Below are positions 9,953-48,627 of a DNA stretch of 64,000 bases, in pieces. The DNA is from Candidatus Fermentibacterota bacterium. Lineage in GTDB: Bacteria; Fermentibacterota; Fermentibacteria; Fermentibacterales; JCC-6. The stretch spans positions 8,065 to 72,064 of the forward strand of contig JAUVIR010000002.1 in NCBI GenBank assembly GCA_030592645.1, in the 5' to 3' direction. Position 1 is the stretch's first letter; the number at the start of each line of letters is the position of its first letter. The translations under genes and the position numbers were made by a program. Below the pieces are notes generated by a model. It was not told where the DNA came from. It saw nothing but the letters and a program-made list of their open reading frames with translations, and made no database searches.

Positions 9953-11682
9953 GCGGGAAAGGCGGCTATTTCTCAAACGAGTCAGTCGAGCGGGTCAGGA
10001 CATCGAGTGATATCGTTACCGTGATCGGCAGGTACGTCAGCCTCAAGAGATCAGGAAGAAGCATAAAAGGTTTGTGTCCCTTTCACCGGGAGAAGACACC
10101 ATCGTTCTTCGTTTCTCCGGACAGGCAGATGTATCACTGTTTCGGGTGCGGGGCAGGAGGAGATATATTCTCATTTCTCATGAACTACCTCAGCTTCTCA
10201 TTTACAGAAGCGGTGGAGGAACTGGCAACCGAAGCCGGCATTAAACTTGAAAGAACCGGAAGAGATACAACCAGAACCGACATATTCAGAGAGATTCTTG
10301 CCGAGGCTCAAAAGTATTACAGGAAGCAGTTTTCGGGTAAGGCTGGAGCTGTTGCGATGAAGTATCTCGAAGGACGAAAACTATCCCGGCAGACCATCGA
10401 AAAGCTCGGTATCGGATGGGCGCCCGATGAGGGTGAGCTCTCCTCCCACCTGCGCGGGAAAGGATATTCGGAAAGCCAGCTTATCGAATCAGGTGTAGCT
10501 ATTCAATCCACAAGGGGCAGCGGAATATACGATAGATTCAGGGGCAGAATACTGTTCCCTATCTCAGATAGACGGGGCAGAGTGATCAGTTTCGGCGGCA
10601 GATTGATCAGGGAATCCGCAACTGGTGCTCCGAAATATGTTAACGGTCCCGATTCGCCGATTTATAGAAAGGGTGATTACCTCTACGGTTACAGAGATGC
10701 CTCAAGGGCATCAAGGGACCTGGATATGATCATTCTCGTCGAGGGTTACTTCGATCATGCGCGATTTGTCGACGCTGGATTCGAATGTGTTGTGGCAACG
10801 TGCGGAACGGCCATTACATCCCCCCAGGCCCGTCAGATGGGAGCTCTTGCGTCAGTCTACATCTGCTACGATGGTGACAGAGCCGGACAGAGGGCATCTG
10901 TAAGGGCTGCTGAAGCCGTTCTTGAGCAGGGATACCTCCCCGGAATAATCGCTATTCCAGGTGGACAGGATCCGGATGATTACATACTCGAGAATGGAAG
11001 AGAATCGGTGCTTGAGCTGATTTCCGCTGCTGATGATCCGATCAGATATGCGCTTGAGCTGCTTGGCGGCTGGTCTTCGGTGAAGGGTTCGGAAAGAAAA
11101 GTAAAAGTTGTTAAAAGACTTGTCGAGATCGCTTCTGCCGCCACAGAGCCTGTTATCAGAGAGACCATGATAAGAGAAATATCTGAACAGACAGGCTATT
11201 CCATGAGAACACTGGAACTTGAGATCGAAGAAGGGGAGAGTAAATCAAGGAAGCCGGGTAAGGAGAAACTCAGGGAGACGGAATTGAACAGGTGGGACAG
11301 CAGGATTATAGGTTCAATTCTCCTGTCGCCTTCCGGGCTTGCGGGCACACTCATAGATTTTGTCGAGGAGGATGACCTCCGCAGTGTATCCGGATGCGGG
11401 ATACTCAGAGAGATTAAAAAGCAGGCTGATTCCGGAATGGAAAAATTTCAGATTTCACGTCTTGAAGACGATAAAAGTTCAGTATGCACCAGACTCATGT
11501 TAGACTATCCAGAACAGACCGGGCCGGTTGACGTTGATAGTGTGATGAGAATCTTGAAAAAGGACAGGCTTCAGAGAGAGTGTAAACTGCTGAAGCTGCA
11601 GTTGAATTCCGGGGAGGATGAAGGGCGTCAGGAGCTGCAGCGAAAGATCATCGAAATCGAGAAGAAGCTTATAAACATGTAA
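9949..11682 (+). CDS. dnaG: DNA primase
   Basis: CHC2 zinc finger (CPFHREKTPSF...HCFGCGAGGD) and Toprim domain (EGY.D). 4-bp overlap with mutS2. Confidence 0.9.
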   Translation: MSGKGGYFSNESVERVRTSSDIVTVIGRYVSLKRSGRSIKGLCPFHREKTPSFFVSPDRQMYHCFGCGAGGDIFSFLMNYLSFSFTEAVEELATEAGIKLERTGRDTTRTDIFREILAEAQKYYRKQFSGKAGAVAMKYLEGRKLSRQTIEKLGIGWAPDEGELSSHLRGKGYSESQLIESGVAIQSTRGSGIYDRFRGRILFPISDRRGRVISFGGRLIRESATGAPKYVNGPDSPIYRKGDYLYGYRDASRASRDLDMIILVEGYFDHARFVDAGFECVVATCGTAITSPQARQMGALASVYICYDGDRAGQRASVRAAEAVLEQGYLPGIIAIPGGQDPDDYILENGRESVLELISAADDPIRYALELLGGWSSVKGSERKVKVVKRLVEIASAATEPVIRETMIREISEQTGYSMRTLELEIEEGESKSRKPGKEKLRETELNRWDSRIIGSILLSPSGLAGTLIDFVEEDDLRSVSGCGILREIKKQADSGMEKFQISRLEDDKSSVCTRLMLDYPEQTGPVDVDSVMRILKKDRLQRECKLLKLQLNSGEDEGRQELQRKIIEIEKKLINM

Positions 11683-11766: not shown

Positions 11767-13080
11767 ATGTCAGCGGAGGAGGAGAATGACCTGATCACAG
11801 AGCAGGAAAAGATAAGATGCAATATGCTTGAATCCATCCTTTCCATTAAGCTTGGCAGTGATCAGTTCTTCGGACCGCTCTGCAAACTGCTGAATGGAGA
11901 AATCCCCGACAGGAGAATTATCGATGAGTCCTTCTGGGGTATGGTCAGCGGTCGTCTGCCCGATTCGAGGAGAAACGAACTGAGGGACATTCTCGGTAAC
12001 ATGAAAAGCCGTTACCTTAACCGCGATTCAGTGCGTGCTCTTCATCTTCTGTGGCATACAGTTGAGAACATGGGAAATGAACTCTTTGAAGGGATCGAAA
12101 GCTGCAGAAAGCTGCTGAACCGGCGCATGAGCCTGATGAATATTCTGGAAGGTGATACGATTCCCCCCGACAGGAAAGCTCTCGCTCATGAATCACTTCT
12201 AAAACCTTCCGATCAGAACAGTTATCGAGCCTGGGAGCTGCATCCTCTCTTTTCATCCATCGAGAACGAACTGGATCTTATGGAGGTTGCGAGAGGCTCA
12301 AGTATTCACGAGTATTCCGTCGCCGCTAAACGTTTCCGCGAAGCCTTTCTGAAAAATGCAGATATCCTTGAACGATTCGTTGAAGCGAATCTCAGGCTGG
12401 TGGTTTCCATGGTACGGAAGTACTATCCATGCAGTATAATGGAAGAGATGGACCTTGTTCAGGAAGGATGCGGGGGTCTTATGGAGGCTGTCAGGCGTTT
12501 TGATTACCGGCGGGGATGCAAACTGTCTACTTTCGCGGTCTGGTGGATAAGACAATACATAATAAAAGCCATCCTCCACCATTCAAGGCTGGTCAGGCTC
12601 CCGGTATCAGTGCTGATAGAGGATTCCTCAATAAACAGTGCGATCGATGAATTTATACTGCAGAACGGTCGAAAGCCAACTCTGGATGAGCTTTCCGAAT
12701 ACATGGGTAGAAACAGGGATGAGATAGAACAGGTGTACATTTCTACAGCGCCCCTGCTCTCACTTGACCATACAGATGGCGAGCATGATGCAACTATCGC
12801 CGATTTTCTGGTGAGCCGTCTTCAGCAGCCTGATGCGGAGGCAGAGCATAACGATACAAGAGAGCGTATCAATGCTGCCCTTGCTTCTCTTTCGGACAGG
12901 GAGAAGACTATAATCACACTGCGTTTCGGACTTCTGGATGATATGCCGTGTACACTGCAGGAACTCGGAAGAATATTCGGTATCAGCAGGGAGAGAGTCA
13001 GACAGCTTGAGTTAAGAGCTCTTAAGAAGCTCAAGGGGCATGGGCTGCTTTCGACACTTTCGCAGAATGGATCGTTATGA
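11767..13080 (+). CDS. rpoD: RNA polymerase sigma-70 family factor (primary-like, lacks long region 1.1)
   Basis: Regions 2-4 present (EANLRLVVSMVRKY, DLVQEG..GLM.AV.RFDY, helix-turn-helix TLQELGRIFGISRERVRQLELRALKKL). Canonical position downstream of dnaG. Confidence 0.75.
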   Translation: MSAEEENDLITEQEKIRCNMLESILSIKLGSDQFFGPLCKLLNGEIPDRRIIDESFWGMVSGRLPDSRRNELRDILGNMKSRYLNRDSVRALHLLWHTVENMGNELFEGIESCRKLLNRRMSLMNILEGDTIPPDRKALAHESLLKPSDQNSYRAWELHPLFSSIENELDLMEVARGSSIHEYSVAAKRFREAFLKNADILERFVEANLRLVVSMVRKYYPCSIMEEMDLVQEGCGGLMEAVRRFDYRRGCKLSTFAVWWIRQYIIKAILHHSRLVRLPVSVLIEDSSINSAIDEFILQNGRKPTLDELSEYMGRNRDEIEQVYISTAPLLSLDHTDGEHDATIADFLVSRLQQPDAEAEHNDTRERINAALASLSDREKTIITLRFGLLDDMPCTLQELGRIFGISRERVRQLELRALKKLKGHGLLSTLSQNGSL

Positions 13081-13904
13081 AAAGCTGGTTCTTTCTCCTT
13101 CTGTCATTCGTTCTCTTATGCTCATGTTCGGGCGTAAGCAGCGACAGCCGGGAGGATAACAGATTTGTGGTTCTCGGACCGTCTCTTGTTGAGCTGATGT
13201 ACGTATCTGGTCTGGGCTCTCGAATAGTCGGTGTCGACCGATACTCTGATTGGCCCGAGGAGACCGGGAGCCTGCCGCAGGTTGGCGGTTATATAGACCC
13301 CTCGCTGGAGCAGATAGCTTCACTGAACCCAACTTCAATCCACATTTCAGGTGAGAGTCCGATGCTCAGAGAACTTGCTGAAACCCTGGGAATACCCTGC
13401 TATACTTACCGGTTCGATACTCTGGCGGATGTTTTCGACTCCGTTGATTCACTGGACGCAAGGTACGGCGCACAGGCGTCTGATTTCAGGGATGAGCTGA
13501 ATGAGAAACTGGATTCGCTTGCAGCTGAAATGGAGAGCATCGCTCCCGTTTCGGTCATGATCGTGATTTACCACGAAAGAGGTTCGTCCAGCATGACCAT
13601 AGCGGGAAGGAGCACGTTTTTTGCAGATCTTCTCTCCTCTGTAAACTGCGTCATATCCGCTCCGGGAACCGGTTCCTGGCCTCTTATATCCGCAGAAGGA
13701 GTTATTTCTCTTTCTCCTGATCATATTGTCTGTCTTTATCCGGGGAAAACGGATACGCTGGAGATCATGTCCTCCGAAAAGAACCACTGGATGGAGCTGG
13801 GATTCGAATCCGACCGGGTACACTGTCTTTTCGAGCCCTACATCATGATTCCCGGCGGAAGAATAGGTTTGATAGCCCAGAGGATATGCTCGTGTCTGCT
13901 CTGA
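13077..13904 (+). CDS. ABC transporter periplasmic substrate-binding lipoprotein, BtuF/FecB class (cobalamin/iron-siderophore/heme type)
   Basis: Lipoprotein signal (LLLSFVLLCSCSG). RFVVLGPSLVELMY...IVGVDRYSDWPEE is typical of the PBP class 8 N-lobe. ATGA overlap with the rpoD stop. Confidence 0.7.
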   Translation: MKSWFFLLLSFVLLCSCSGVSSDSREDNRFVVLGPSLVELMYVSGLGSRIVGVDRYSDWPEETGSLPQVGGYIDPSLEQIASLNPTSIHISGESPMLRELAETLGIPCYTYRFDTLADVFDSVDSLDARYGAQASDFRDELNEKLDSLAAEMESIAPVSVMIVIYHERGSSSMTIAGRSTFFADLLSSVNCVISAPGTGSWPLISAEGVISLSPDHIVCLYPGKTDTLEIMSSEKNHWMELGFESDRVHCLFEPYIMIPGGRIGLIAQRICSCLL

Positions 13905-14671
13905 GTATCATCAATCTGAATGCAGGTTACGGGCGTAACCTGGTTCTTTCGGATATAAACCTTTCTATCGTGCCGGGTGAGATATGCGGACTGATAGGTC
14001 CGAACGGCGTCGGGAAAAGCACCCTTCTGCGGAGCATTCTTCAGATCGGAGTTGATTATTCCGGTGAAATATCCATCTGCGGCAGCAGGCTCTCCTCACT
14101 TTCGGGCAATCAGAAGGCCAGAATGGTATCCTACCTTCCTCAGAACTTCAACCCACATTCCCGATTGACCGTTGCCCAGACCGTTCTGCTCGGCAGGCAT
14201 CCATACAGAAGCGGATGGGCTATGGATTCTGGGGATGATCTGGAAATTGCAGAGAAATGTATGCTTGAAACGGATACATGGGATCTGCGGAACAGAGTGT
14301 TTTCAAACCTTTCAGGCGGAGAGAAGAGGCTGGTTCTGCTCGCCTCGGCACTTGCACAGGAACCTGAACTCCTCCTTCTTGATGAACCTGGGTCATCACT
14401 GGACTTCAGGCATCAGCTCAATATGTGGCTGCTGCTCAAAAAACTCTCAAGCAGAGGAATTGCAGTTCTAGTCAGCACACACGAAGTCGCGCTGTCCGGA
14501 AGGTACCTTGATTCGGTGCTTATCCTTTCGGATGGAAGATCCAGAGCTTTCGGCAGCCCCTCAGATGTTTATACAACTGAGATCCTGTCAGAAGTATTCA
14601 ATGTTAATCTTCTTGTATCGCAGGACAGTGCAACCCGCTCCTGGGTTATCGTGCCCGAAATGAAACAATGA
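13886..14671 (+). CDS. ABC transporter ATP-binding protein (FecE/BtuD-like)
   Basis: Walker A GPNGVGKSTLL, ABC signature LSGGEKRLVLLA, Walker B LLLLDEP. Confidence 0.8.
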   Translation: MLVSALSIINLNAGYGRNLVLSDINLSIVPGEICGLIGPNGVGKSTLLRSILQIGVDYSGEISICGSRLSSLSGNQKARMVSYLPQNFNPHSRLTVAQTVLLGRHPYRSGWAMDSGDDLEIAEKCMLETDTWDLRNRVFSNLSGGEKRLVLLASALAQEPELLLLDEPGSSLDFRHQLNMWLLLKKLSSRGIAVLVSTHEVALSGRYLDSVLILSDGRSRAFGSPSDVYTTEILSEVFNVNLLVSQDSATRSWVIVPEMKQ

Positions 14672-15642
14672 AAAACGGAGTTGTCTCAAGGCCGTCATCA
14701 GGATTCTGGATCCTTCTGGTACTGTCCGTGATCCTTGCCGGTGCTCTTTCACTTCTTGCAGGTCCCATGGATCATCCTCCGGAATGGGTTATCATGAGAC
14801 TCAGGCTGCCCAGGCTTGTGCTTGCCCTGCTTGCCGGAAGCGCGCTCTCCATCTCGGGTTCTGTTCTTCAGTCACTGCTCAGGAATGATCTTGCAACACC
14901 CTACACTCTGGGCATATCCGCGGGAGCCGGACTGGTGGCCGGTTCGGTGATCGTGTCCGGGATGATCGTACCGGTTATTGGCCTTGTCGCTGCCGGAACG
15001 GCGGGAGCCCTGCTCGCGGTTCTTCTGGTGTACGCCCTGGCTTACCGGAGCAGGAGGGGTAATTACGGTCCAACGCTCCTGCTGGCCGGGATCACAATGA
15101 ATCTTGTAGGCGCATCGATACTGCTCCTGTTCGAGTATTTCAGTGATGCCTCCAGGATTATGGAGATAGTACGATGGATGATGGGCGATATGGCGGTTAT
15201 CGGATGGGACAAACCTCTCTTCCTCCTGCCTCCTGTGATTCTGGGAATAGCTGTAGCACTTACAAGAACCGGGGTTCTGAACCAGATATCACAGGGCGAT
15301 GACATTGCCCATACCAGAGGTGTTTCGGTAAACTGGGAGCGGAATCTGCTGCTTGCTGTTGCAGCCCTTCTTGCAGGGTCAACCGTCGGGGTAGTGGGTC
15401 CGGTTGGTTTTGTGGGGCTTATGGTGCCCCACATCATGAGGAGATTCGTTGGATCCGATTACAGATACCTTGTTCCGGCATCGGCGCTCGGAGGTATGCT
15501 GCTTGTTATTCTTGCGGATTCTCTTTCAAGGGTGATCATAAGCCCGGCCGAGCTTCCTATCGGCATAGTGATGTCACTTATAGGGGGCCCGTTTTTCCTG
15601 GTTCTTCTCCTTGCGGGAGGGAAGCAGAAAAGAAAAGGATAA
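14668..15642 (+). CDS. ABC transporter permease, FecCD/BtuC family
   Basis: Polytopic membrane protein with the FecCD-family LPRL..ALL.G..LS.SG...Q motif. 324 aa. Confidence 0.8.
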   Translation: MKNGVVSRPSSGFWILLVLSVILAGALSLLAGPMDHPPEWVIMRLRLPRLVLALLAGSALSISGSVLQSLLRNDLATPYTLGISAGAGLVAGSVIVSGMIVPVIGLVAAGTAGALLAVLLVYALAYRSRRGNYGPTLLLAGITMNLVGASILLLFEYFSDASRIMEIVRWMMGDMAVIGWDKPLFLLPPVILGIAVALTRTGVLNQISQGDDIAHTRGVSVNWERNLLLAVAALLAGSTVGVVGPVGFVGLMVPHIMRRFVGSDYRYLVPASALGGMLLVILADSLSRVIISPAELPIGIVMSLIGGPFFLVLLLAGGKQKRKG

Positions 15643-20176: not shown

Positions 20177-20203
20177 ACTGTTCGATAACGATTCAAAGAT
20201 ATG

Positions 20204-20238
20204 AGGCTGCCGGGTAATCGGCAGCCTTATTTTTTTGG
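20204..20238 (+). terminator. Rho-independent terminator
   Basis: 9-bp GC stem AGGCTGCCG/CGGCAGCCT with a 6-nt loop, followed by TATTTTTTTGG. Confidence 0.6.
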
Positions 20239-21347: not shown

Positions 21348-21361
21348 CAATTTGAAGAACG

Positions 21362-21391
21362 GGGAGAATAGTTCGAAACTATTCTCCCCGT
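21362..21391. terminator. Bidirectional terminator-like hairpin between convergent genes
   Basis: 13-bp perfect stem GGGGAGAATAGTT / AACTATTCTCCCC with a CGAA loop. No strong T-tract. Confidence 0.4.
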
Positions 21392-27527: not shown

Positions 27528-28605
27528 CAAACCGGAAGTTGAGAACACTGATAATACTATGGAGGAACTGATTACCGGGATCGGGAAACTTGTTTACAAG
27601 CTTAATGAATCCGTGGTGAACATTGATACTCGTATAGAAAAGCTTGAAACAGGAGTTTCATCTCTGCTCACGGAGAAGTTTGAAAGCCTGACAGCAGAGC
27701 TGGTAAAGTCCAACGAGTTCCTTGCCGGTATCCGGGAAGACCTCGGTACTGCACAGGAGAAACTTCTGCAGACTCTGGCTGCAGGACCTGAGGATTCCGT
27801 CAATAAGGAACTGTTCTCAAAGGAACTTAGTGAAGTGTCCCTTCTGATCACTGAGTCTGCTTCATCCATCGAGAAGACTGTTACCGAAGTGATTGGTCAA
27901 TCCAATGAGAACAGAGGGGTTATATTTTCGGAAAACATCAAGATCATCTCCGATGGAATGGGCGAAATAACATCGAAAATGGATCAGGCCAAAGACAGCA
28001 TACAGGAGAAGCTGGTGGAGGTACAAGCTTCAACAGCCAAGGAAGTAACATCAATATCAAGCAGCATCAAGGATAGCACCGATGCTCAGAAGGAGCAGCT
28101 AGAACAGATGAAGGGTCTACTGACACTGCATTCTGTTGAAGTTAAGGATAACAGGGTAAAAAATCTGAACCGTTCCGCAATAGTGCATTTTAACAATGCC
28201 GAGTTGGGTCAGGCCTGCTCGGATCTGAAAGAAGCTATTGAACTGAGTCCCGAGAGTTCCGAGCTGCTTGCGAACATGGCTCACATTGAGGCATCACAGG
28301 GGAAACTGAAGGAGGCGGAAGAACACTTCAGAAAAGCTCTCGAAATCGATCCCGAACTTGAGCCAGCCATCTCCGGTTTAGGAACAGTGCTCCTGGTAAC
28401 CGGAAGATCCGCTGATACAATCGATTTTCTTCAGAAATATCTGAATGAGGATTCTGAGGCATCTGCCGGCATTATGATTGCCTTGAGCAGAGCTTACGTT
28501 TCCCAGGGCGACCATGCAAAAGCTCTGGCAGTACTGGAGAAGGCAGATAAGATCGCTCCCGGACACCCTGAGCTGGAACAGGAACTTGCCAAATACAGGG
28601 ACTAG
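27520..28605 (+). CDS. Coiled-coil plus TPR-repeat protein (CpoB/YbgF-like architecture)
   Basis: N-terminal ~220 aa coiled coil and C-terminal three TPR units (AIELSPESSELLANMAHIEASQGKLKEAEEHFRKALEIDPE...). Translationally coupled to the upstream giant ORF. Confidence 0.45.
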   Translation: MADKPEVENTDNTMEELITGIGKLVYKLNESVVNIDTRIEKLETGVSSLLTEKFESLTAELVKSNEFLAGIREDLGTAQEKLLQTLAAGPEDSVNKELFSKELSEVSLLITESASSIEKTVTEVIGQSNENRGVIFSENIKIISDGMGEITSKMDQAKDSIQEKLVEVQASTAKEVTSISSSIKDSTDAQKEQLEQMKGLLTLHSVEVKDNRVKNLNRSAIVHFNNAELGQACSDLKEAIELSPESSELLANMAHIEASQGKLKEAEEHFRKALEIDPELEPAISGLGTVLLVTGRSADTIDFLQKYLNEDSEASAGIMIALSRAYVSQGDHAKALAVLEKADKIAPGHPELEQELAKYRD

Positions 28606-30808
28606 AGCATTTGTATTAATACCTGTAATCGCAGTGCTGCTCATCGGATGCAGGATACTTCAGCCGGATGAAAACCTCTCATGCCTGCAGAGAAGCATCC
28701 TCGCTGAAGCCAGCGGAGATTCCCTGCTTCGGGAAGGGCTGGAAGAGCAGGCCAGGGAAGCTTACATCAGGGCTGCTCTTTTAAGGTTACCAGATGACAG
28801 TCTGAGACTTGATCTTGCCTGGAAAGCTGCCGGATCTTCTGATACTCCCAGTATAATCACAGCCCAGCTGCTTCTCGAGAGACCGGATTCCCTTGCTTCT
28901 TACAGAGCAATCGAGCTTGGAGGTGCCGGGGTCGGCATGGAACTTCTTTCCAGCCTCTCCCAAAATGATTGCGTAATGCCGGAATACCTTCGGCTGGTAC
29001 TTGCCGACTCACTTATAGAGGCCGACCTGGCCGATCTTGCTTTGCGGGCACTCAGAGGAGTTCCGGGCGACCTCCCCGAACGGGCTCTGCGGAGCAGAAA
29101 CGTACTTTTCTACAGGGGATACCTGGAAACCGGTCAGCTCACTTCAGCGGATTCTCTTTTAAATGAAGCTGAACTTTCAAGCGGGGATGAACTGCTGTCG
29201 CTTCTGTATCATTACAGGGGTATCTGGATGCTGCAGAATGGTCATTCGGGATACAGAAGCATTCTTCTGCACTCCTTTGAACTATGGCCTGCCGCTCCGG
29301 TTCATGCTGATGCATTCGATGAAATAAGGATGGAATTGCTGAATGACAGAGATTTCGCCGCTTCGGTTGCTGATCCATTCTACAGTGGAGGTCTATGGAA
29401 CGAATTGTATGACATAGCCATTAATTCCGCTGATCCTGATCCTCAGCTTTGGTATCTTGCTGCTCGTACAAGGGATAGATTGGGTTTCTACGATGCAGCG
29501 GTCAGCATGCTTGATGAGTATCTTGTCAGATGGCCCGCCTCAGAGGGTGCAGCGAATGCGATGATCTATCTGGGGAGGGATCTTGGACGCTCTGGTAACT
29601 GGCAGAGGGGACTTGCGGTTCTGAAGCAGTACGGAGAGGTGTATCCGGAGCATTACAGGATAGGTAACCTCCCATGGTACATCGGTGATCTGCTGGTTGA
29701 GAACAGGCTCTGGCAGCAGGCTATCCCATGGTTCCGCATAACACTTGAACGTTACCCGAACAATGTTACTGCAGACGATGCCCATTTCTATCTCTGCTTC
29801 TCACTCCTCAAATCCGGAATGATTCCCGATGCTCTGAGCGAGCTGCAAACATTCATCTCCAGATGGTCAGGCAGTGTATACCTTTCATCCGCCAAGTACT
29901 GGCTTGGTAAACTCCTCCTGGCAGAGGGTAATCCTGCGGGCGCAGTTATACTTGAGAACCTGATCCAGTCTTTTCCCGCTAGCCTTCCGGCTTACTTTGC
30001 AAGAGAACTTCTGGGGCAACCGGCCTGGGAGCCTGAGTTCACCGAAGAACCCCTGGCTGAATGGATGGCGAGGCATGGACACGCTCCTTCCCCGCCGCCT
30101 GCAGCCGCGCTTAGAGGGTTGTTCCTTCAGGAGGCCGGTCTGAGGCATTTTGCAGATGGTGAGTTCCGGATGGCGGAAGAGATCGTCGGTGGACCCGACT
30201 ACCTTGCTCCTTTTTATCTCGAAAATGATGTATGGGAACGCAGACCGATATCGGGATACAATATGTGGAACCTCTCAGACAGTGACAGCGACAGGCCAAA
30301 GGAACTGTGGATGCTTCGCTACCAGATGGCATGGCCGGAGCTTGTTGTCCCGGCAGGTGAGAAATACGGATTGGATTCCCTCTTCGCATGGGCGATAATC
30401 AGGAACGAAAGCATGTTCCAGCCGACCTGCTACTCGGTTGCCGGTGCAAGAGGTCTTATTCAGATGATCCCGAGCACCTCTGAATATGTTGCGATTGAAC
30501 AGGGATGGAACGATTATTCTCCGGACAGGCTTTACGATCCTGCTGTTTCCATAGAATACGGGATCAGCTACATCTCGGGAGTTAACCGGGATTTAGGAGG
30601 AGACCCTGTGTTCACCGCAGCCGCATACAACGGGGGGCCGCATAACGCTGTTCACTGGGGTGCTGAGGATATGGAGCCGGACGAGTTCTTCTCGCTTATA
30701 ACTTACAATGAAACGAAAAGCTATACGCAGAATGTTCATCACGCTTATATGATCTATAAGGCGTTGTATCTGGGGCCGGGCGTCACTTCTGGTCACTTGC
30801 AAAGGTAA
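28514..30808 (+). CDS. slt: Soluble lytic transglycosylase Slt70-like (superhelical N-domain plus C-terminal SLT domain). Start uncertain.
   Basis: C-terminal SLT core (AWAIIRNESMFQP...GARGLIQMIPST, AAYNGGPHNA). Internal lipobox-like LLIGC about 40 aa into the called frame. The 3' end runs into palindromic element 30772-30833. Confidence 0.7.
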   Translation: MQKLWQYWRRQIRSLPDTLSWNRNLPNTGTRAFVLIPVIAVLLIGCRILQPDENLSCLQRSILAEASGDSLLREGLEEQAREAYIRAALLRLPDDSLRLDLAWKAAGSSDTPSIITAQLLLERPDSLASYRAIELGGAGVGMELLSSLSQNDCVMPEYLRLVLADSLIEADLADLALRALRGVPGDLPERALRSRNVLFYRGYLETGQLTSADSLLNEAELSSGDELLSLLYHYRGIWMLQNGHSGYRSILLHSFELWPAAPVHADAFDEIRMELLNDRDFAASVADPFYSGGLWNELYDIAINSADPDPQLWYLAARTRDRLGFYDAAVSMLDEYLVRWPASEGAANAMIYLGRDLGRSGNWQRGLAVLKQYGEVYPEHYRIGNLPWYIGDLLVENRLWQQAIPWFRITLERYPNNVTADDAHFYLCFSLLKSGMIPDALSELQTFISRWSGSVYLSSAKYWLGKLLLAEGNPAGAVILENLIQSFPASLPAYFARELLGQPAWEPEFTEEPLAEWMARHGHAPSPPPAAALRGLFLQEAGLRHFADGEFRMAEEIVGGPDYLAPFYLENDVWERRPISGYNMWNLSDSDSDRPKELWMLRYQMAWPELVVPAGEKYGLDSLFAWAIIRNESMFQPTCYSVAGARGLIQMIPSTSEYVAIEQGWNDYSPDRLYDPAVSIEYGISYISGVNRDLGGDPVFTAAAYNGGPHNAVHWGAEDMEPDEFFSLITYNETKSYTQNVHHAYMIYKALYLGPGVTSGHLQR

Positions 30809-30833
30809 GTGACCAGAAGTGACGCCCGGCCCC
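30772..30833. repeat. Palindromic element, copy 1: 27-bp perfect inverted repeat with 8-nt loop (GGGGCCGGGCGTCACTTCTGGTCACTT ... AAGTGACCAGAAGTGACGCCCGGCCCC)
   Basis: Read directly: arms 30772-30798 and 30807-30833 are exact reverse complements. Sits between the convergent slt-like and TolB-like genes. The slt stop codon lies in its loop/arm. Confidence 0.85.
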
Positions 30834-30838
30834 GAAGA

Positions 30839-31852
30839 TTAGATAAATTCTTCGGTAGTGAACACTCTCAGTACTTCACCATCCTGCACCAGCTCTATCC
30901 AGGCCAGGTATTTGCCATCCGGTGACAGGACAGGCTGAGTTGCCCATTCCCCCTGCCGGGATGCCTGAGTGAGATAATCGGATTCCCTGTTCATTATCCA
31001 TACCGTTGTTGGATCTTCCCATGAACGTCCGAAGTCCGCTACCGGGAAAGGATCTTTCCTGCAGAATGCCAGTAACTGTCCATCCAGAACAGCGGAAACC
31101 TGGCTTGCGTTATCCATGAATACTTTGTCGATGCCAGATTCAATGTTGAGAAATCTCAATTCCCAATCTCCCCATCCGCCTATCTGGAACAGAAGCACCC
31201 TGTCGGTTATCCACACAGGGTTGGATTCATGCCAGTCCCACCTGTAGAAAGTCGTATCGGCTCTGGCCCTTCTTCCCGAAGGCGCGGAGGCACCGATGAT
31301 ATACAGCTCCTCATACCAGGTTGGATTCATTGCAAAATTCATGCATGCGATATTAGTTCCATCAGGTGATATCACAGGAGCGTTGACCCTGGCTTCCGAA
31401 TACTCTGGGAGGAGAAGGAAGACATCATCAGAAAACAGACCTGTCACGAAAATATCACTGCCAAGGAACCGGGTAGTAAAACAGAGGACCGGATCACGGT
31501 AATGTCCCCGTGGATCGAATGTGCAGGCAACTGCTTCACCGATATGTAAAGGCTGCCTGCAGGTCTGAGGGTCGTCCGCCTGGAAGTAGCGCACAGTTCC
31601 GTCAAGAACGAAAGCGACCCAGGAGCCGTCGGGGGTAAACGCGGGAGAGGCCGCGTTGCCTTCTATAACGGTTATCTGCCCTTTCTCACGTGTCCATATA
31701 ACAAGCCTGTCATCAAGGGCTGCCACAAGCATATCTCCGGTCGGTGACCAGGCGAGATCGGGAGGGTAGTCGTCGTACCCGTTCCCGAACACATCCGGCA
31801 GAACGGTGAGGGTGGTCATAACAGCAACAATACACAGCATGCCTCTTATCAT
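30839..31852 (-). CDS. Periplasmic WD40-like beta-propeller (TolB-like PD40 repeat) protein
   Basis: Signal peptide (MIRGMLCIVAVMTTLTVLP) and repeated SPDG/TPDG PD40 motifs (AFTPDGSWVAF, VISPDGTNIAC, VLSPDGKYLAW). Start placed at MIRGM because the longer ORF N-terminus is encoded by palindromic element 2. Confidence 0.6.
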   Translation of the reverse strand: MIRGMLCIVAVMTTLTVLPDVFGNGYDDYPPDLAWSPTGDMLVAALDDRLVIWTREKGQITVIEGNAASPAFTPDGSWVAFVLDGTVRYFQADDPQTCRQPLHIGEAVACTFDPRGHYRDPVLCFTTRFLGSDIFVTGLFSDDVFLLLPEYSEARVNAPVISPDGTNIACMNFAMNPTWYEELYIIGASAPSGRRARADTTFYRWDWHESNPVWITDRVLLFQIGGWGDWELRFLNIESGIDKVFMDNASQVSAVLDGQLLAFCRKDPFPVADFGRSWEDPTTVWIMNRESDYLTQASRQGEWATQPVLSPDGKYLAWIELVQDGEVLRVFTTEEFI

Positions 31853-31882
31853 CAGCGTTCCTCTCTTCGGGGCAGTCTCTTC

Positions 31883-31943
31883 GGGGCCGGACGTCACTTG
31901 CGACACTTACGAAACGCAAGTGTCGCAAGTGACGTCCGGCCCC
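31883..31943. repeat. Palindromic element, copy 2: 26-bp perfect inverted repeat with 9-nt loop (GGGGCCGGACGTCACTTGCGACACTT ... AAGTGTCGCAAGTGACGTCCGGCCCC)
   Basis: Arms 31883-31908 and 31918-31943 are exact reverse complements. Shares GGGGCCGG(G/A)CGTCACTT with copy 1. Preceded by an 11-bp direct repeat TCTCTTCGGGG x2 (31862-31886). Confidence 0.85.
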
Positions 31944-31953
31944 ATCTATATAG

Positions 31954-32602
31954 GTGGAGATTCATATGCTGTCAACGGTTGACAAATTATGTAAACAATT
32001 GATAATATGGGAGTTACAGAAGTGTCAATTTAAGGCGGGAGATTATATGAGAAGAGAAACCCTGGAATACCTTGTATGCCCTGAATGCAAATCAGAACTG
32101 GAAGCAGAAATTGTCAGTAGCTGGAAAGGTGATATCCGATCAGGTCTTCCTCAATACAGGATTGGAGCAGACACTGTCTGTTGAACGGGATCTGAAATGT
32201 CTCGGGAATATTCAGTACCGTTTCAGGTATGCGGGCCGAAGCCGAACTTCTGAAGCGGTTGGCGGTGATGTTAAACGGCTTCCGATAAAAACAGAGTGTA
32301 TTGATACCGTCATGATGCTCAATGCCCTTTCTGAAATTAACGGCATTTCAGTTATGCTGAAAGAAGCGTATCGTGCACTAAAGGAGGGAGGGCATTTCAT
32401 CATAAAGGTTTCAGAGCTTCCGTTTACCGGAGATTTGATTTCTCTGTCTGAGTTTGTACGGTTTGCCGAGGGAATTGATCAATACTCCGGATATGAGAGA
32501 TTTCAATCGGATGCGGAAGAAAGAGGTTTTATCATTCTCAAGTCAGAAAGATTAGTGGAGAAAACCGGGAAGTATTCCCGGCTGATCTCATTCAGAAAGT
32601 GA
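31954..32602 (+). pseudogene. Probable degraded SAM-dependent methyltransferase: Trm112-like zinc-ribbon fragment (31954-32184) plus out-of-frame methyltransferase C-terminal fragment (32072-32602)
   Basis: Frame-1 ORF carries the LEYLVCPECKSELE zinc ribbon. Overlapping frame-2 ORF carries post-motif-I methyltransferase segments (DTVMMLNALSEI, LKEGGHFII) but no GxGxG motif I. The two halves are in different frames. Confidence 0.35.
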
Positions 32603-44001: not shown

Positions 44002-44646
44002 TTGCGCAAGCGATACGTTACGGATGGAAATATGAAATATCCAAAGATCAGAGAAATTGTAGAAGCAGTCAAAGCAGTTGTCAAGGGACCATACACATCT
44101 AAATTCCCTGCGGAACCGCATATAGCGCACCCAAATTTCAGAGGGCAGCCGGTATTCGACCAGGATAAGTGTCTTGGATGCCTTGCCTGCGAGGAGTGCT
44201 GTCCTTCGGAAGCCATTACACATGAAGACATCCTTGAAGGCCCCGGTGCTCCGAAAAGAGTGATGATCCATCATACGGATGACTGCATCTATTGCGGGGT
44301 CTGCGTTGATGCCTGCATAAGAGAGACCGGTGATACCGGAATAGTGCAGACCAACGACTGGAATCTGGCATACTTCGACCGCAGCAAGGCTTTCGAGACT
44401 ATAGAGAAAGATCTGCAGCTCTGCGAGGTATGCGGTGTCATTATCGGTACGAAAGATCATCTGGTATGGATCGCTGAAAAATTGGGCGAGCTCTCGTTCT
44501 CAAATCCTACGCTTTACCTCTCAAGGCTTAGAAAACTCGGCCTTGCGGATGATAACATTCAGGCTGTACTGGAAGACAACGGCCGCTCCGACAGGGTTAA
44601 GATCCTCTGCGCTGAATGCAGGCGCAAAACCACCCTCTACGAGTAG
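44002..44646 (+). CDS. NuoI/MbhN-like 2 x [4Fe-4S] ferredoxin subunit
   Basis: CLGCLACEECCP and CIYCGVCVDAC motifs. A second CEVCG...C cluster region near the C-terminus. Confidence 0.7.
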   Translation: MRKRYVTDGNMKYPKIREIVEAVKAVVKGPYTSKFPAEPHIAHPNFRGQPVFDQDKCLGCLACEECCPSEAITHEDILEGPGAPKRVMIHHTDDCIYCGVCVDACIRETGDTGIVQTNDWNLAYFDRSKAFETIEKDLQLCEVCGVIIGTKDHLVWIAEKLGELSFSNPTLYLSRLRKLGLADDNIQAVLEDNGRSDRVKILCAECRRKTTLYE

Positions 44647-44661
44647 AAGCCTAAGCAAATT

Positions 44662-44735
44662 GGGGCCGGGCCTAACATCTAAACATTCATTACCAGTTTA
44701 TCAAAAAGAAATGTTTAGATGTTAGGCCCGGCCCC
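44662..44735. repeat. Palindromic element, copy 3: 26-bp perfect inverted repeat with 22-nt loop (GGGGCCGGGCCTAACATCTAAACATT ... AATGTTTAGATGTTAGGCCCGGCCCC)
   Basis: Arms 44662-44687 and 44710-44735 are exact reverse complements. Same GGGGCCGGGC base as copies 1 and 2. Lies in the 124-bp gap between the NuoI-like gene and hycI. Confidence 0.85.
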
Positions 44736-44770: not shown

Positions 44771-45229
44771 ATGACACTTAAAGATAAACTGGCTTCTTGC
44801 TTAGAGGGCAAAGTGGTTTACATGGGTATCGGTAATATTCTCAGGGGGGATGACGGTATCGGTCCCGAACTGGTGGCCAGATTGTCCGAGAAAGGTCTGT
44901 GCACAGTGGACGCCGGAACGGCTCCGGAGAATTATATACGTCCGGTCGCCAGGTTCGAACCTGACACGATAGTCATAGTTGATGCTGTTCATCTGGACAG
45001 GGAACCCGGATCTGTTGAACTGCTTGACCGCAGTGAGATATTGGAAAATACGGGTTTTACGACCCATACCCTCTCACCAGTGCTTGTCATGGAAAGACTT
45101 GAGGATGAAACAGGGGCCAGGGTGGTCATGCTTGCAATTCAACCCGGGACTCTTGAGTTCGGCGCGTCATTGTCTCCCGAAGTAGACCGCCTGCTTGATA
45201 TACTGCCGGATCTGCTGACCCTGGAGTAA
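44771..45229 (+). CDS. hycI: Hydrogenase maturation endopeptidase (HycI/HybD family)
   Basis: VYMGIGNILRGDDGIGPELV and downstream His region of the aspartic endopeptidase family. 152 aa. Confidence 0.8.
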   Translation: MTLKDKLASCLEGKVVYMGIGNILRGDDGIGPELVARLSEKGLCTVDAGTAPENYIRPVARFEPDTIVIVDAVHLDREPGSVELLDRSEILENTGFTTHTLSPVLVMERLEDETGARVVMLAIQPGTLEFGASLSPEVDRLLDILPDLLTLE

Positions 45230-46832: not shown

Positions 46833-46839
46833 CTTCCAG

Positions 46840-47163
46840 CTAACGTAACAATCTACGTTCCAGAAGATCCTGAAGGTCTCTTCTTCCGTCAAGAACACAA
46901 TGAACGAATACCTTCTTACCTTCGATCTCGTAAATTACGCGATAAGGTTTGAAATGGAGTTCCAGATAGTTACTGACACTGATCCGCCTTAGTTCTGGAG
47001 GGATGTGACCACGTTCTGGAAGCTGATCGAGGGTATTACAGATTTCTTCAAGTTTGCCAAGGACGTAGTCTGCCTTGCGATCAGAATCATGTTCAAGAAT
47101 ATAGCGATAGATATCAAAAAGATCTTCTTGGACGTCGTGAATGATAATTACCTGATATGTCAC
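46840..47163 (-). CDS. parE: Type II toxin, RelE/ParE family
   Basis: 107 aa. ParE-like pattern (...SNYLELHFKPYRVIYEIEGKKVFVHCVLDGRRD). 4-bp overlap with the upstream antitoxin gene. Confidence 0.75.
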   Translation of the reverse strand: MTYQVIIIHDVQEDLFDIYRYILEHDSDRKADYVLGKLEEICNTLDQLPERGHIPPELRRISVSNYLELHFKPYRVIYEIEGKKVFVHCVLDGRRDLQDLLERRLLR

Positions 47164-47447
47164 TTGAGATTCTTGATTCGAGAACGAATACTATTAAAGG
47201 ATTGCTTTGCAGTCCTGTAGTTTCCTTCTCGTTTACTTTTTGAACTCTGGGCCAGCATTTTCAATAGTGCCAGACTTTCCTGTGTCTGCTCATATGATTC
47301 CAGATCCTGAACAATCACCTTCGCCTCGCCGTTCTGGGTTATAATAAAAGTCTTGTGTTCATCTGAAATTTCACGCAGCAATTCAGATGCATGTGCTTTC
47401 AAATAACTGATTGATTTAACAGAATCACTCAATTTCATGACAATCAC
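47160..47447 (-). CDS. Type II antitoxin, Phd/YefM family
   Basis: KTFIITQNGEAKVIVQDLESYEQTQESLALLK is the classic Phd/YefM core. True start is probably MKLSD at 47438. Confidence 0.7.
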   Translation of the reverse strand: MIVMKLSDSVKSISYLKAHASELLREISDEHKTFIITQNGEAKVIVQDLESYEQTQESLALLKMLAQSSKSKREGNYRTAKQSFNSIRSRIKNLK

Positions 47448-47647
47448 CTCAGACCATATATAGTTCGAATATAGGTCATGTCAAGATTTCTCAACTTGCG
47501 GGATTAACAATTGATTTATTTATGAATAAGCTTATCACTTTCATCGAGCTTAAAGCTTGCGCATTCAGATGGAGATCTTGATCTGGCTGATAGACTGGGA
47601 AATATCTTTATGAATACGACAATCAATCTGGGCATCTCTTTGGTTTA

Positions 47648-47839
47648 GTGAATCTTCAGGTATTTGACCTATCCGGGAGACTTATTTCTGAGCTTGATGC
47701 TGTTTCCTGTGAAGGGAAGGCTGTATTTCATTGGAATGGAGAAACATCTTCAGGAGTTGAACTCCCGTCAGGTATCTATACAGCAAGGCTATATTCGGGG
47801 CGTACAGTTATCACCGCAACGCTGTTAAAGCTTGAGTAG
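47648..47839 (+). pseudogene. Remnant of a T9SS/FlgD-Ig-type C-terminal sorting domain (63 aa, no upstream coding body)
   Basis: NLQVFDLSGRLISELDAV...LPSGIYTARLYSGRTVITATLLKLE closely parallels the C-terminal domain of the protein at 20442-21347. In-frame stops lie immediately upstream. Confidence 0.45.
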
Positions 47840-47934
47840 TAAGCTGTCCCGAGGCGATATGAACCATTGAACGTCAAATCACAAGACCATCATGGGGGCT
47901 CAGAAAGTAATACTTTTGAGAACTGGCACGGTTC

Positions 47935-48627
47935 CTAACTGTAATTGGATTCCACGAAATCGCAGAATTCTTCCATACCTTCGCCGGTCTTCGCCGAGAC
48001 GGTGAATACAAGAACGTCAGGATTGAGGCTTCTGCATTCCTCGATGGCCCTGTCCACGTCAAAATCAAGATGGGGGAGAAGATCCATCTTGTTAATTACC
48101 AGTACGTTGATAGTGCTGAAAAGACTGGGGTACTTGAGTATTTTGTCGTCACCCTCGGGTACCGAAAGAAGACCAATTCTCAGGTTTTCACCCAGATCGT
48201 AACCGCTTGGACAAATCAGATTCCCAACATTCTCGATCGCCAGTAACTCCAGTATGTCCGAATCCAGCTCCATCTGATCCATTGCATGTTTTACAGCATG
48301 GGCATCAAGATGGCAGGCGCCTCCGGTTTCTATCTGCCAGGCCTGGCATCCGGCTTTCTCTATCCTCTCAGCATCTCTTCTAGTTTGAATATCACCCTCT
48401 ATGACGGCCATTCTGGAACCGAAATAGTGTGCCATGGATTCCAATACGGTAGTTTTACCGGCACCGGGAGAGCTTATCAGATTAAGAGTGTAGATACCTT
48501 TTCCTTTCAGAAATCCTCTGTTCTCCGCGGCAAAGAGGTCATTTTTATTCATGACTGAAGTAGTTATGTCAATTTTCTGTTCAATTATCTCATCACACAT
48601 ATCAATCCTCTCCTTCTTCCAGTTCAA
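47935..48627 (-). CDS. hypB: Hydrogenase nickel incorporation GTPase HypB
   Basis: SPGAGKTT P-loop, CxxC-containing N-terminus, G-domain motifs. 230 aa. Confidence 0.9.
   Translation of the reverse strand: MNWKKERIDMCDEIIEQKIDITTSVMNKNDLFAAENRGFLKGKGIYTLNLISSPGAGKTTVLESMAHYFGSRMAVIEGDIQTRRDAERIEKAGCQAWQIETGGACHLDAHAVKHAMDQMELDSDILELLAIENVGNLICPSGYDLGENLRIGLLSVPEGDDKILKYPSLFSTINVLVINKMDLLPHLDFDVDRAIEECRSLNPDVLVFTVSAKTGEGMEEFCDFVESNYS

Follow-up and report, generated by a model that had tools for sequence, protein, structure and literature searches.

What are the three long hairpins that lie between the genes of an uncultured bacterium, and how did they come to be there? The stretch of DNA that raises this question, referred to here as the window, comprises 64,000 nucleotides from Candidatus Fermentibacterota bacterium (NCBI GenBank assembly GCA_030592645.1, contig JAUVIR010000002.1, positions 8,065 to 72,064 of the forward strand). 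A first-pass annotation, made from the letters alone, had noted the hairpins and proposed a dispersed family resembling repetitive extragenic palindromes (REPs) and bacterial interspersed mosaic elements (BIMEs) or miniature inverted-repeat transposable elements (MITEs). We find that the three hairpins are real, that they form a family and that they are not due to chance. As to their nature, we consider it probable (at roughly 0.6) that they are members of a lineage-restricted family of extragenic palindromes of 60-83 nt in Candidatus Aegiribacteria/Fermentibacterota, REP/REPIN-like and non-autonomous. The earlier proposal thus holds for a repeat family that is dispersed and turned over, but not for strict membership of the REPs, REPINs or MITEs, because the arms are not palindromic themselves.

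Each of the three inverted repeats is confirmed at 26-27 perfect pairs, and none is assigned to a strand. Inverted-repeat analysis of the window shows hp1 (type A, 30772-30833) as an 8-nt loop (30799-30806) on 27 perfect pairs; its arms (30772-30798 and 30807-30833) read GGGGCCGGGC GTCACTTCTGGTCACTT, and it is located between the convergent genes of an SLT-domain protein (plus strand) and a PD40 beta-propeller (minus strand). hp2 (type A', 31883-31943) has 26 perfect pairs and a 9-nt loop, or alternatively 28 of 29 pairs with a 3-nt loop. Its arms (31883-31908 and 31918-31943) read GGGGCCGGAC GTCACTTGCGACACTT, and it lies within the 5' leader of the PD40 gene, approximately 30 nt upstream of the ATG (31852-31850). 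Finally, hp3 (type B, 44662-44735) carries a 22-nt loop on 26 perfect pairs (arms 44662-44687 and 44710-44735, GGGGCCGGGC CTAACATCTAAACATT) and stands in an intercistronic gap, with the final Fe-S subunit gene of a membrane-bound hydrogenase operon on one side and hycI on the other.

The clamp at the base of the stems had been described as common to both ends of all three hairpins. This needs one correction: the 3' clamp of hp2 is GTCCGGCCCC and not GCCCGGCCCC; it is the complement of hp2's own GGGGCCGGAC. Exact GGGGCCGG(G/A)C sites (GGGGCCGGRC) occur six times in the 64 kb and are the six hairpin arms, and with one mismatch allowed the window holds 11 clamp matches against 5.2 expected. As RNA the three hairpins fold at -50 to -67 kcal/mol, and as DNA at -31 to -39 kcal/mol; their z-scores run from -10 to -13.5, and in 200 shuffles no equally stable fold arose. 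All other inverted repeats of the window have at most 15 perfect pairs. Rfam gives no match to the hairpins or the window at the gathering threshold; below it, only generic eukaryotic miRNA hairpin models matched.

Comparison of the copies recovered elsewhere yields a common anatomy for elements of 60-83 nt: a 10-bp G+C clamp with consensus RGGRYCGGRY, a T at position 12 and an A at position 14, a variable, A/T-richer stem ending in CAYTT, and a loop of 8-27 nt. Two main types are seen repeatedly: type A (GTCACTTCTGGTCACTT, loop of about 8 nt) and type B (CTAACATCTAAACATT, loop of about 22 nt). Covariation between the arms, suggested earlier as a check on the family, is evident in 21 copies: nearly all mirrored positions form Watson-Crick pairs, and two or more Watson-Crick pair types are seen at 18 of the 26 stem positions. 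G2, C6, G7, G8, T12 and A14 are invariant, also in members found by synteny rather than by pattern. Loops diverge faster than stems. Between hp3 and its syntenic counterpart L008 all 74 of 74 positions are identical at a flank identity of 90%, for which the chance is about 4e-4. Taken singly, an arm does not fold better than its shuffled versions. The tandem CA(C/T)TT-like half-sites that the first-pass annotation saw in each arm are present as well; similar motifs recur in members found independently of the search pattern, as ATAACATCGTGCACTT in type E and TTCATTTGTGACACTTAG in type F.

The family appears to be confined to a single lineage. We searched with a strict pattern, the clamp plus NTNAC on both arms, which holds about 50 bits of information. 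Among 185,579 species, each represented by one genome, it matched 12 loci, 11 of which are in metagenome-assembled genomes (MAGs) of the Fermentibacteria/Aegiribacteria type; in JGI metagenomes it matched 11 loci. A clamp-only pattern run on IMG/VR gave 40 matches, all due to chance (high-GC contigs, stems of at most 18 bp) and none a true member. BLAST of hp3 against a plasmid collection and of hp1 against a phage collection found no match. Limited searching of the literature on Fermentibacterota turned up no description of such elements.

Four further hairpins were kept out of the family: those of types 'C' and 'D' (L054, L064) and those of L012 and L057. These were not counted because their taxonomy is unknown or foreign and they may be chance matches. 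In all four a GGGGCCGGGC clamp is followed by ATTAC or TTTAC (L012 7063-7200, L057 5778-5838, L054 2455-2540, L064 607-662). L012 is the end of a Thermoplasmata MAG contig and a fold-back chimera, and the L057 contig has a GC content of 71%. Such GGGGCCGGGC-clamp hairpins outside the lineage could be chance matches or could belong to a wider family.

Dispersal is seen most directly where a hairpin recurs without its surroundings. By BLAST, nine loci (L002, L004-L007, L009-L011 and L013) resemble the window in the hairpin alone. L009 holds a copy of hp1 that is identical over 62 of 62 positions in an unrelated context, and two contigs of one MAG (L006 and L011) carry identical 73-nt copies with differing flanks. 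The arms at the second site of L066, a syntenic relative discussed below, are identical to the hp1 arms of the window. Moreover, subfamilies have derived characters in common at non-homologous sites, for example an A·A/T·T mismatch at position 20 together with a particular loop type. Such characters point to copying and not to independent origin. The dispersed family proposed at the outset is therefore borne out by identical or nearly identical hairpins in unrelated contexts of several Fermentibacteria/Aegiribacteria assemblies.

All copies lie just outside open reading frames (ORFs); most of them are at a distance of 0-40 nt from a stop codon, and two are in 5' leaders. Tabulated by context, as had also been suggested, 11 of 13 independent sites touch at least one stop codon and the other two (hp2 and the copy of L056) are in leaders between divergent genes. 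The neighbours are unrelated housekeeping genes, among them those for PFK, shikimate kinase, glycosyltransferases, ClpB and XdhC. The idea of a regulon was rejected because the genes adjoining the hairpins share no function.

Further evidence comes from the three sites of the window in relatives. Syntenic loci were retrieved via homologues of PD40 and HycI, and in the genomes compared the flanking genes are 66-93% identical. The same site can be empty, filled, filled by another member of the family, reduced to a clamp-sized footprint, partly tandem-duplicated or inverted in its loop. Site 1, the position of hp1, holds type A in the window, L055 and L003, and type E, with the clamp AGGGTCGGAC and the arm ATAACATCGTGCACTT, in L065 and L067. 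In L066 the occupant is type F, with the clamp GGGACCGGAC and a loop of 27 nt; directly behind it come the remains of a type A clamp, GCCCGGCCCC, and a window-like flank. L068 retains a decayed half-hairpin at this site and L069 has none. Site 2 is filled by A' in the window and L065, by A in L066 and by A'' (clamp GGGGTCGGAT) in L067, and is empty in L003, L055, L068 and L069. Both the window and L008 have an intact hairpin at site 3, and L073 has a decayed one; in L070, and in L071 and L072, a footprint of 12 nt is found (GGGCCCGGCCCC and GGGCTCGGCCCC, respectively) with the same flanks as in the window.

Replacement is not the only change at site 2. For the 9-nt loop of hp2 the window has gcgtttcgt, whereas L065 has its exact inverse, acgaaacgc, with arms and flanks collinear; judged from these sequences, the difference is a flip-flop inversion. 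Taken together, the presence or absence, replacement and inversion of hairpins at orthologous sites argue for mobility or recombination. In L069, the most distant of the syntenic relatives, the PD40 and SLT genes overlap and no hairpin is present (10995-11030). The PD40 coding sequence of L069 contains GGGGCCGGGGG and ends in ...VSGPGEFI*, compared to ...VFTTEEFI* in the other relatives; this could be a coincidence or an absorbed remnant of the clamp.

The best fit to these patterns is that the hairpin itself is the element, which would occupy the untranslated ends of transcripts, spread without target-site duplication and be lost leaving footprints. The hairpin would extrude in single-stranded DNA and then be copied or excised by an enzyme, the obvious candidate being an HUH/Y1 enzyme of the IS200/RAYT type (RAYT, REP-associated tyrosine transposase). 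Alternatively, host replication slippage, template switching or gene conversion between copies might move it. The stems may be kept complementary by templated correction from arm to arm or by selection on structure.

A number of observations weigh against a mobile repeat family. No RAYT, IS200, TnpB, recombinase, integrase or other transposase was seen in the window, the retrieved loci or the genes flanking hairpins, although no search was aimed at RAYT. The flanks of about 19 copies have no conserved motif or tetranucleotide in common, and neither target-site duplications nor bracketing direct repeats were found at the hairpins, where duplications are one-sided, tandem and variable in length. 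Apparent copy numbers are also far below those of typical REP/REPIN populations: a MAG has one or two matches to the strict pattern, which skips the clamp variants E, F and A'' so that these counts cover strict matches only, and the window has three per 64 kb. Neither the syntenic loci L065-L076 nor the rest of the window hold a family hairpin beyond the three sites. The intergenic classes occupied (approximately five convergent, four to six tandem and two divergent) are about those of any extragenic insertion; location alone is therefore no proof of a function at 3' ends. Furthermore, site replacement could stem from homologous recombination between co-occurring strains, and L065-L067, L070 and L071 come from one common sample, ERZ25074835.

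The one-sided duplications deserve separate attention. At the junction of hp2, TCTCTTCGGGGC (31862-31873) is followed by AG and by a second TCTCTTCGGGGC (31876-31887), the latter overlapping the first 5 nt of the hairpin; the whole duplication (31862-31887) has no assigned strand. Read on the PD40 strand, the clamp end and the ribosome-binding-site region are duplicated, giving CCCCGAAGAGA twice. At least eight copies show a tandem duplication at one flank that takes in 4-8 nt from the end of the clamp and 4-9 nt of the adjoining flank. Such short clamp-end/flank duplications are present in the window, L003, L005, L013, L055, L061, L065 and L066, with a looser GCGGGGCCGG repeat at the hairpin flank of L002 and longer partial duplications, arm included, in L004, L007 and L067. 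Those of L013 and L061 have arisen independently at the same PFK-side junction. Slippage of replication stalled at the hairpin is one candidate source of the duplications; tandem copies followed by deletion of a palindrome are another.

A more specific version of mobility may also be considered, in which an undescribed, lineage-specific enzyme other than a RAYT recognises the RGGRYCGGRY clamp in extruded DNA and brings about site-directed insertion beside existing copies, excision with a clamp footprint and inversion of the loop. We regard this as unlikely. If true, it would amount to a hairpin-homing system able to rewire the ends of transcripts, with the one-sided duplications as its mechanistic scar.

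Among the alternatives to a mobile repeat family, the one that survives best takes the hairpins as targets of a lineage-specific nucleic-acid-binding protein or RNase, acting as a cis-regulatory motif in RNA or DNA that selection keeps at a few loci. The low apparent copy number would then stem from the few transcripts under regulation instead of from selfish spread, and conservation is higher in the stems than in the coding DNA beside them. The six invariant bases, the apical CAYTT, which is kept in pattern-independent members, and the tandem half-site-like motifs about one helical turn apart also speak for it. Against this, the neighbouring genes have no common function, and close relatives whose operons are otherwise the same lack the hairpin or have just a footprint of it. 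The spacing of the half-sites (8-10 nt) and the loop (8-27 nt) are both variable. A copying mechanism would, moreover, still be required for the non-homologous sites. We consider recognition sites of this kind unlikely.

Slightly less probable still are ordinary factor-independent terminators, possibly bidirectional, that evolved in place and have the clamp as the G+C-rich base of their stems. The first-pass annotation had considered such a role in both directions probable for hp1. The proximity of most copies to a stop codon, the location of several between convergent genes and the very stable stems with their G+C-rich base all agree with this. Intrinsic terminators across phyla are, however, defined by a hairpin, a U-tract and bubble-edge signals (bioRxiv 10.64898/2026.05.29.728758), and none of the copies has a U-tract on either strand. 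The window itself does contain a canonical terminator at 20194-20237, where a 19-bp stem is followed by TTTTTTT. The idea of a terminator is weakened because the U-tract is lacking in the family while such a terminator is present in the same DNA. It also does not account for arms of 26-27 nt that are identical at non-homologous sites and across species, for members that swap at one site, or for a hairpin that is dispensable in close relatives. Finally, hp2 occupies a 5' leader and not a 3' end, and like the copy of L056 it stands between divergent genes. Elsewhere in the window, a terminator-like hairpin of 15 perfect pairs between convergent genes (21359-21391) has the features of an ordinary 3' end.

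As mobile repeats, the elements would also have consequences in RNA. A perfect helix of at least 26 bp is a plausible substrate for RNase III. If transcribed, the copies would fold into hairpins of -50 to -67 kcal/mol without U-tracts, and by analogy with E. coli REPs these might serve as 3'-exonuclease barriers, as weak or factor-dependent attenuators, or as RNase III substrates. The E. coli REPs are 3'UTR stabilisers of the upstream mRNA and partial terminators (bioRxiv 10.64898/2026.03.23.713779), and going by them, the probable role of the RNA hairpins is to hinder decay or to attenuate transcription weakly. At hp3 such an effect would shift expression toward the hydrogenase structural genes and away from hycI and the genes beyond it, and the RNA counterpart of hp2 would be a 5'-terminal stabilising stem-loop.

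Integron-type attC sites, with PD40 between hp1 and hp2 as a gene cassette, are very improbable. The attC core consensus is RYYYAAC/GTTRRRY. One gene is indeed bracketed by two hairpins, and the type B arms hold GCCTAAC ... GTTAGGC, which fits this consensus. The motif is, however, internal to the clamp rather than terminal and does not occur in types A, A', E and F; the perfectly paired stems leave no base extrahelical, and the window and the loci show neither an array nor an integrase. On these grounds the attC identity was rejected. PD40 as a cassette bracketed by hairpins was rejected too, because the gene keeps its position in all relatives, including L069, which has no hairpin, and L068, where the decayed half-hairpin at site 1 is all there is. 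That the hairpins are assembly or amplification artefacts (fold-back chimeras) can practically be dismissed: the contig-end fold-back of L012, with flanks palindromic for 40 nt around a hairpin of similar clamp, speaks for such an origin, but the family hairpins are internal to long contigs, have non-palindromic flanks and recur at orthologous positions in independent NCBI, ENA, JGI and Logan assemblies.

The genes around the hairpins add some detail. The gene of the SLT-domain/TPR lytic transglycosylase (28514-30808, plus strand) runs with its 3' end into hp1, so that the final 11 codons and the stop of this ORF lie within the hairpin, as the first-pass annotation had it. In those relatives where the SLT gene stops ahead of the hairpin, the C-terminus is ...KALYE* or ...KALYLR*. 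The adjoining of hp1 to the beta-propeller stop was seen correctly as well: the stop codon of the PD40 gene (30839-31852, minus strand) is at 30839-30841, 5 nt past hp1. This gene has hp1 at its 3' side and hp2 in its 5' leader.

A promoter-like TTGACA-17 nt-TATATA element, identified by reading the sequence, is found on the minus strand at 31947-31975, where it ends 3 nt short of hp2. A consensus scan misses it, since its -10 hexamer has an A in sixth place. The element is kept in L068 and L069, both of which are without hp2. Since hp2 begins 3 nt downstream of this conserved element, it probably forms the extreme 5' end of the PD40 mRNA. The region 31947-32008 as a whole has divergent promoter-like elements with a common palindromic -35 region, TGTCAACGGTTGACA: the minus-strand element faces PD40 and a plus-strand TTGACA-16-GATAAT faces a methyltransferase remnant. 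This arrangement is kept in relatives without hp2.

The methyltransferase ORF (32072-32602, 176 aa) is a truncated remnant of a 340-aa gene of the Trm112p-like + Methyltransf_11 type. Relatives show this gene in several states: whole in L068 and L069, degraded in L003, and lost by deletion from L055 and L065-L067. Beside hp2 this is a case of gene decay in progress. A 'hairpin + methyltransferase module', suggested by the presence of both beside hp2 and in L002, was rejected: the two methyltransferases are 32% identical over 53 aa, which reflects generic kinship.

At the third site, the gene of the 4Fe-4S subunit (44002-44646, plus strand) is the final structural gene ahead of hp3, and hycI, encoding the hydrogenase maturation protease (44771-45229, plus strand), lies downstream of it. 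The window is ordinary chromosomal DNA with dnaK/dnaJ, mutS2, dnaG, rpoD, an ABC transporter and TPR and SLT envelope genes. It also encodes a 13-gene membrane-bound Mrp-type [NiFe] hydrogenase operon, hycI, hyp maturation genes and a ParE/Phd pair. A scan of the window for tRNA and tmRNA found none. Among proteins that cluster with those of the window as nearly identical, members are named Candidatus Aegiribacteria sp. The ParE toxin and Phd antitoxin genes (46840-47447, minus strand) are inside a 1.1-kb stretch (46835-47950) that is missing from the syntenic L008 and also from the gene order of L070 and L073; the stretch looks like a recent insertion between a 533-aa hyc-associated gene and hypB. 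In L071 a glycyl-radical enzyme and its activase (12115-15375) are inserted between the same two genes. This gap may be a local insertion hotspot, used by the toxin-antitoxin pair in the window and by the glycyl-radical enzyme in L071.

Summarizing, the family belongs to the small dispersed extragenic palindromes, a kind already known, and a new mechanism is not revealed on present evidence. It does add a repeat family to the uncultured phylum Fermentibacterota. The filled, empty, footprint, swapped and flipped states of three sites are visible among co-occurring relatives, which is unusually clean for a small palindrome. As a consequence the family offers a natural system to study the copying and removal of small palindromes and the tuning of expression at operon ends, here that of a membrane-bound hydrogenase operon. 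In practice the hairpins could be used as a strain-typing marker and to account for assembly breaks in Aegiribacteria MAGs.

It remains to place the family among known systems. With intrinsic terminators it has in common stable hairpins with a G+C-rich base right after stop codons, but the stems are two to three times longer than needed, no U-tract follows, identical sequences occur at unrelated loci and some copies are in 5' leaders. A DDE-type MITE has terminal inverted repeats and a target-site duplication of fixed length, whereas no such duplication brackets the hairpins here. The subterminal hairpins of IS200/IS605 elements are imperfect, with recognition bulges, a defined cleavage site and a target tetranucleotide. 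Like these elements and the miniature ones derived from them, the present hairpins might be handled in single-stranded form, possibly by an HUH/Y1 enzyme, and they show no target duplication; they differ in that neither bulges nor a cleavage or target tetranucleotide are seen and no TnpA or TnpB is nearby.

REPs are imperfect palindromes of about 35-40 nt with hundreds of copies, a conserved 5' tetranucleotide (GTAG-like) and a cognate RAYT. Compared to these short imperfect palindromes, the elements described here are near-perfect hairpins of 60-83 nt with 26-29 pairs and a 10-bp G+C clamp, they have few copies per genome (counted as strict matches), and neither a conserved flank nor a RAYT was seen. 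As with the REPs and BIMEs of Enterobacteria and Pseudomonas, however, they are short extragenic palindromes in transcribed DNA, often in convergent spacers or inside operons. Their sequence is lineage-specific, their presence varies between close relatives without target-site duplication, and the effects to be expected on RNA are the same, a barrier to decay and partial attenuation.

In the REPIN-RAYT system the arm is an imperfect REP palindrome, while the arms here fold no better than shuffles; REPINs also number tens to hundreds and flank a single-copy RAYT, neither of which was observed in the window and the hairpin loci. In other respects the two agree. REPINs are hairpin-forming doublets with spacers less conserved than their arms, and they leave palindromic footprints on excision (PMC3337134). 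Likewise, the family combines conserved arms with a faster-evolving spacer in a structure that forms a hairpin, and it shares with the system of Bertels and Rainey (PMC3337134, PMC3116915) the occurrence of several sequence groups per genome, short footprints and mostly vertical inheritance within a lineage.

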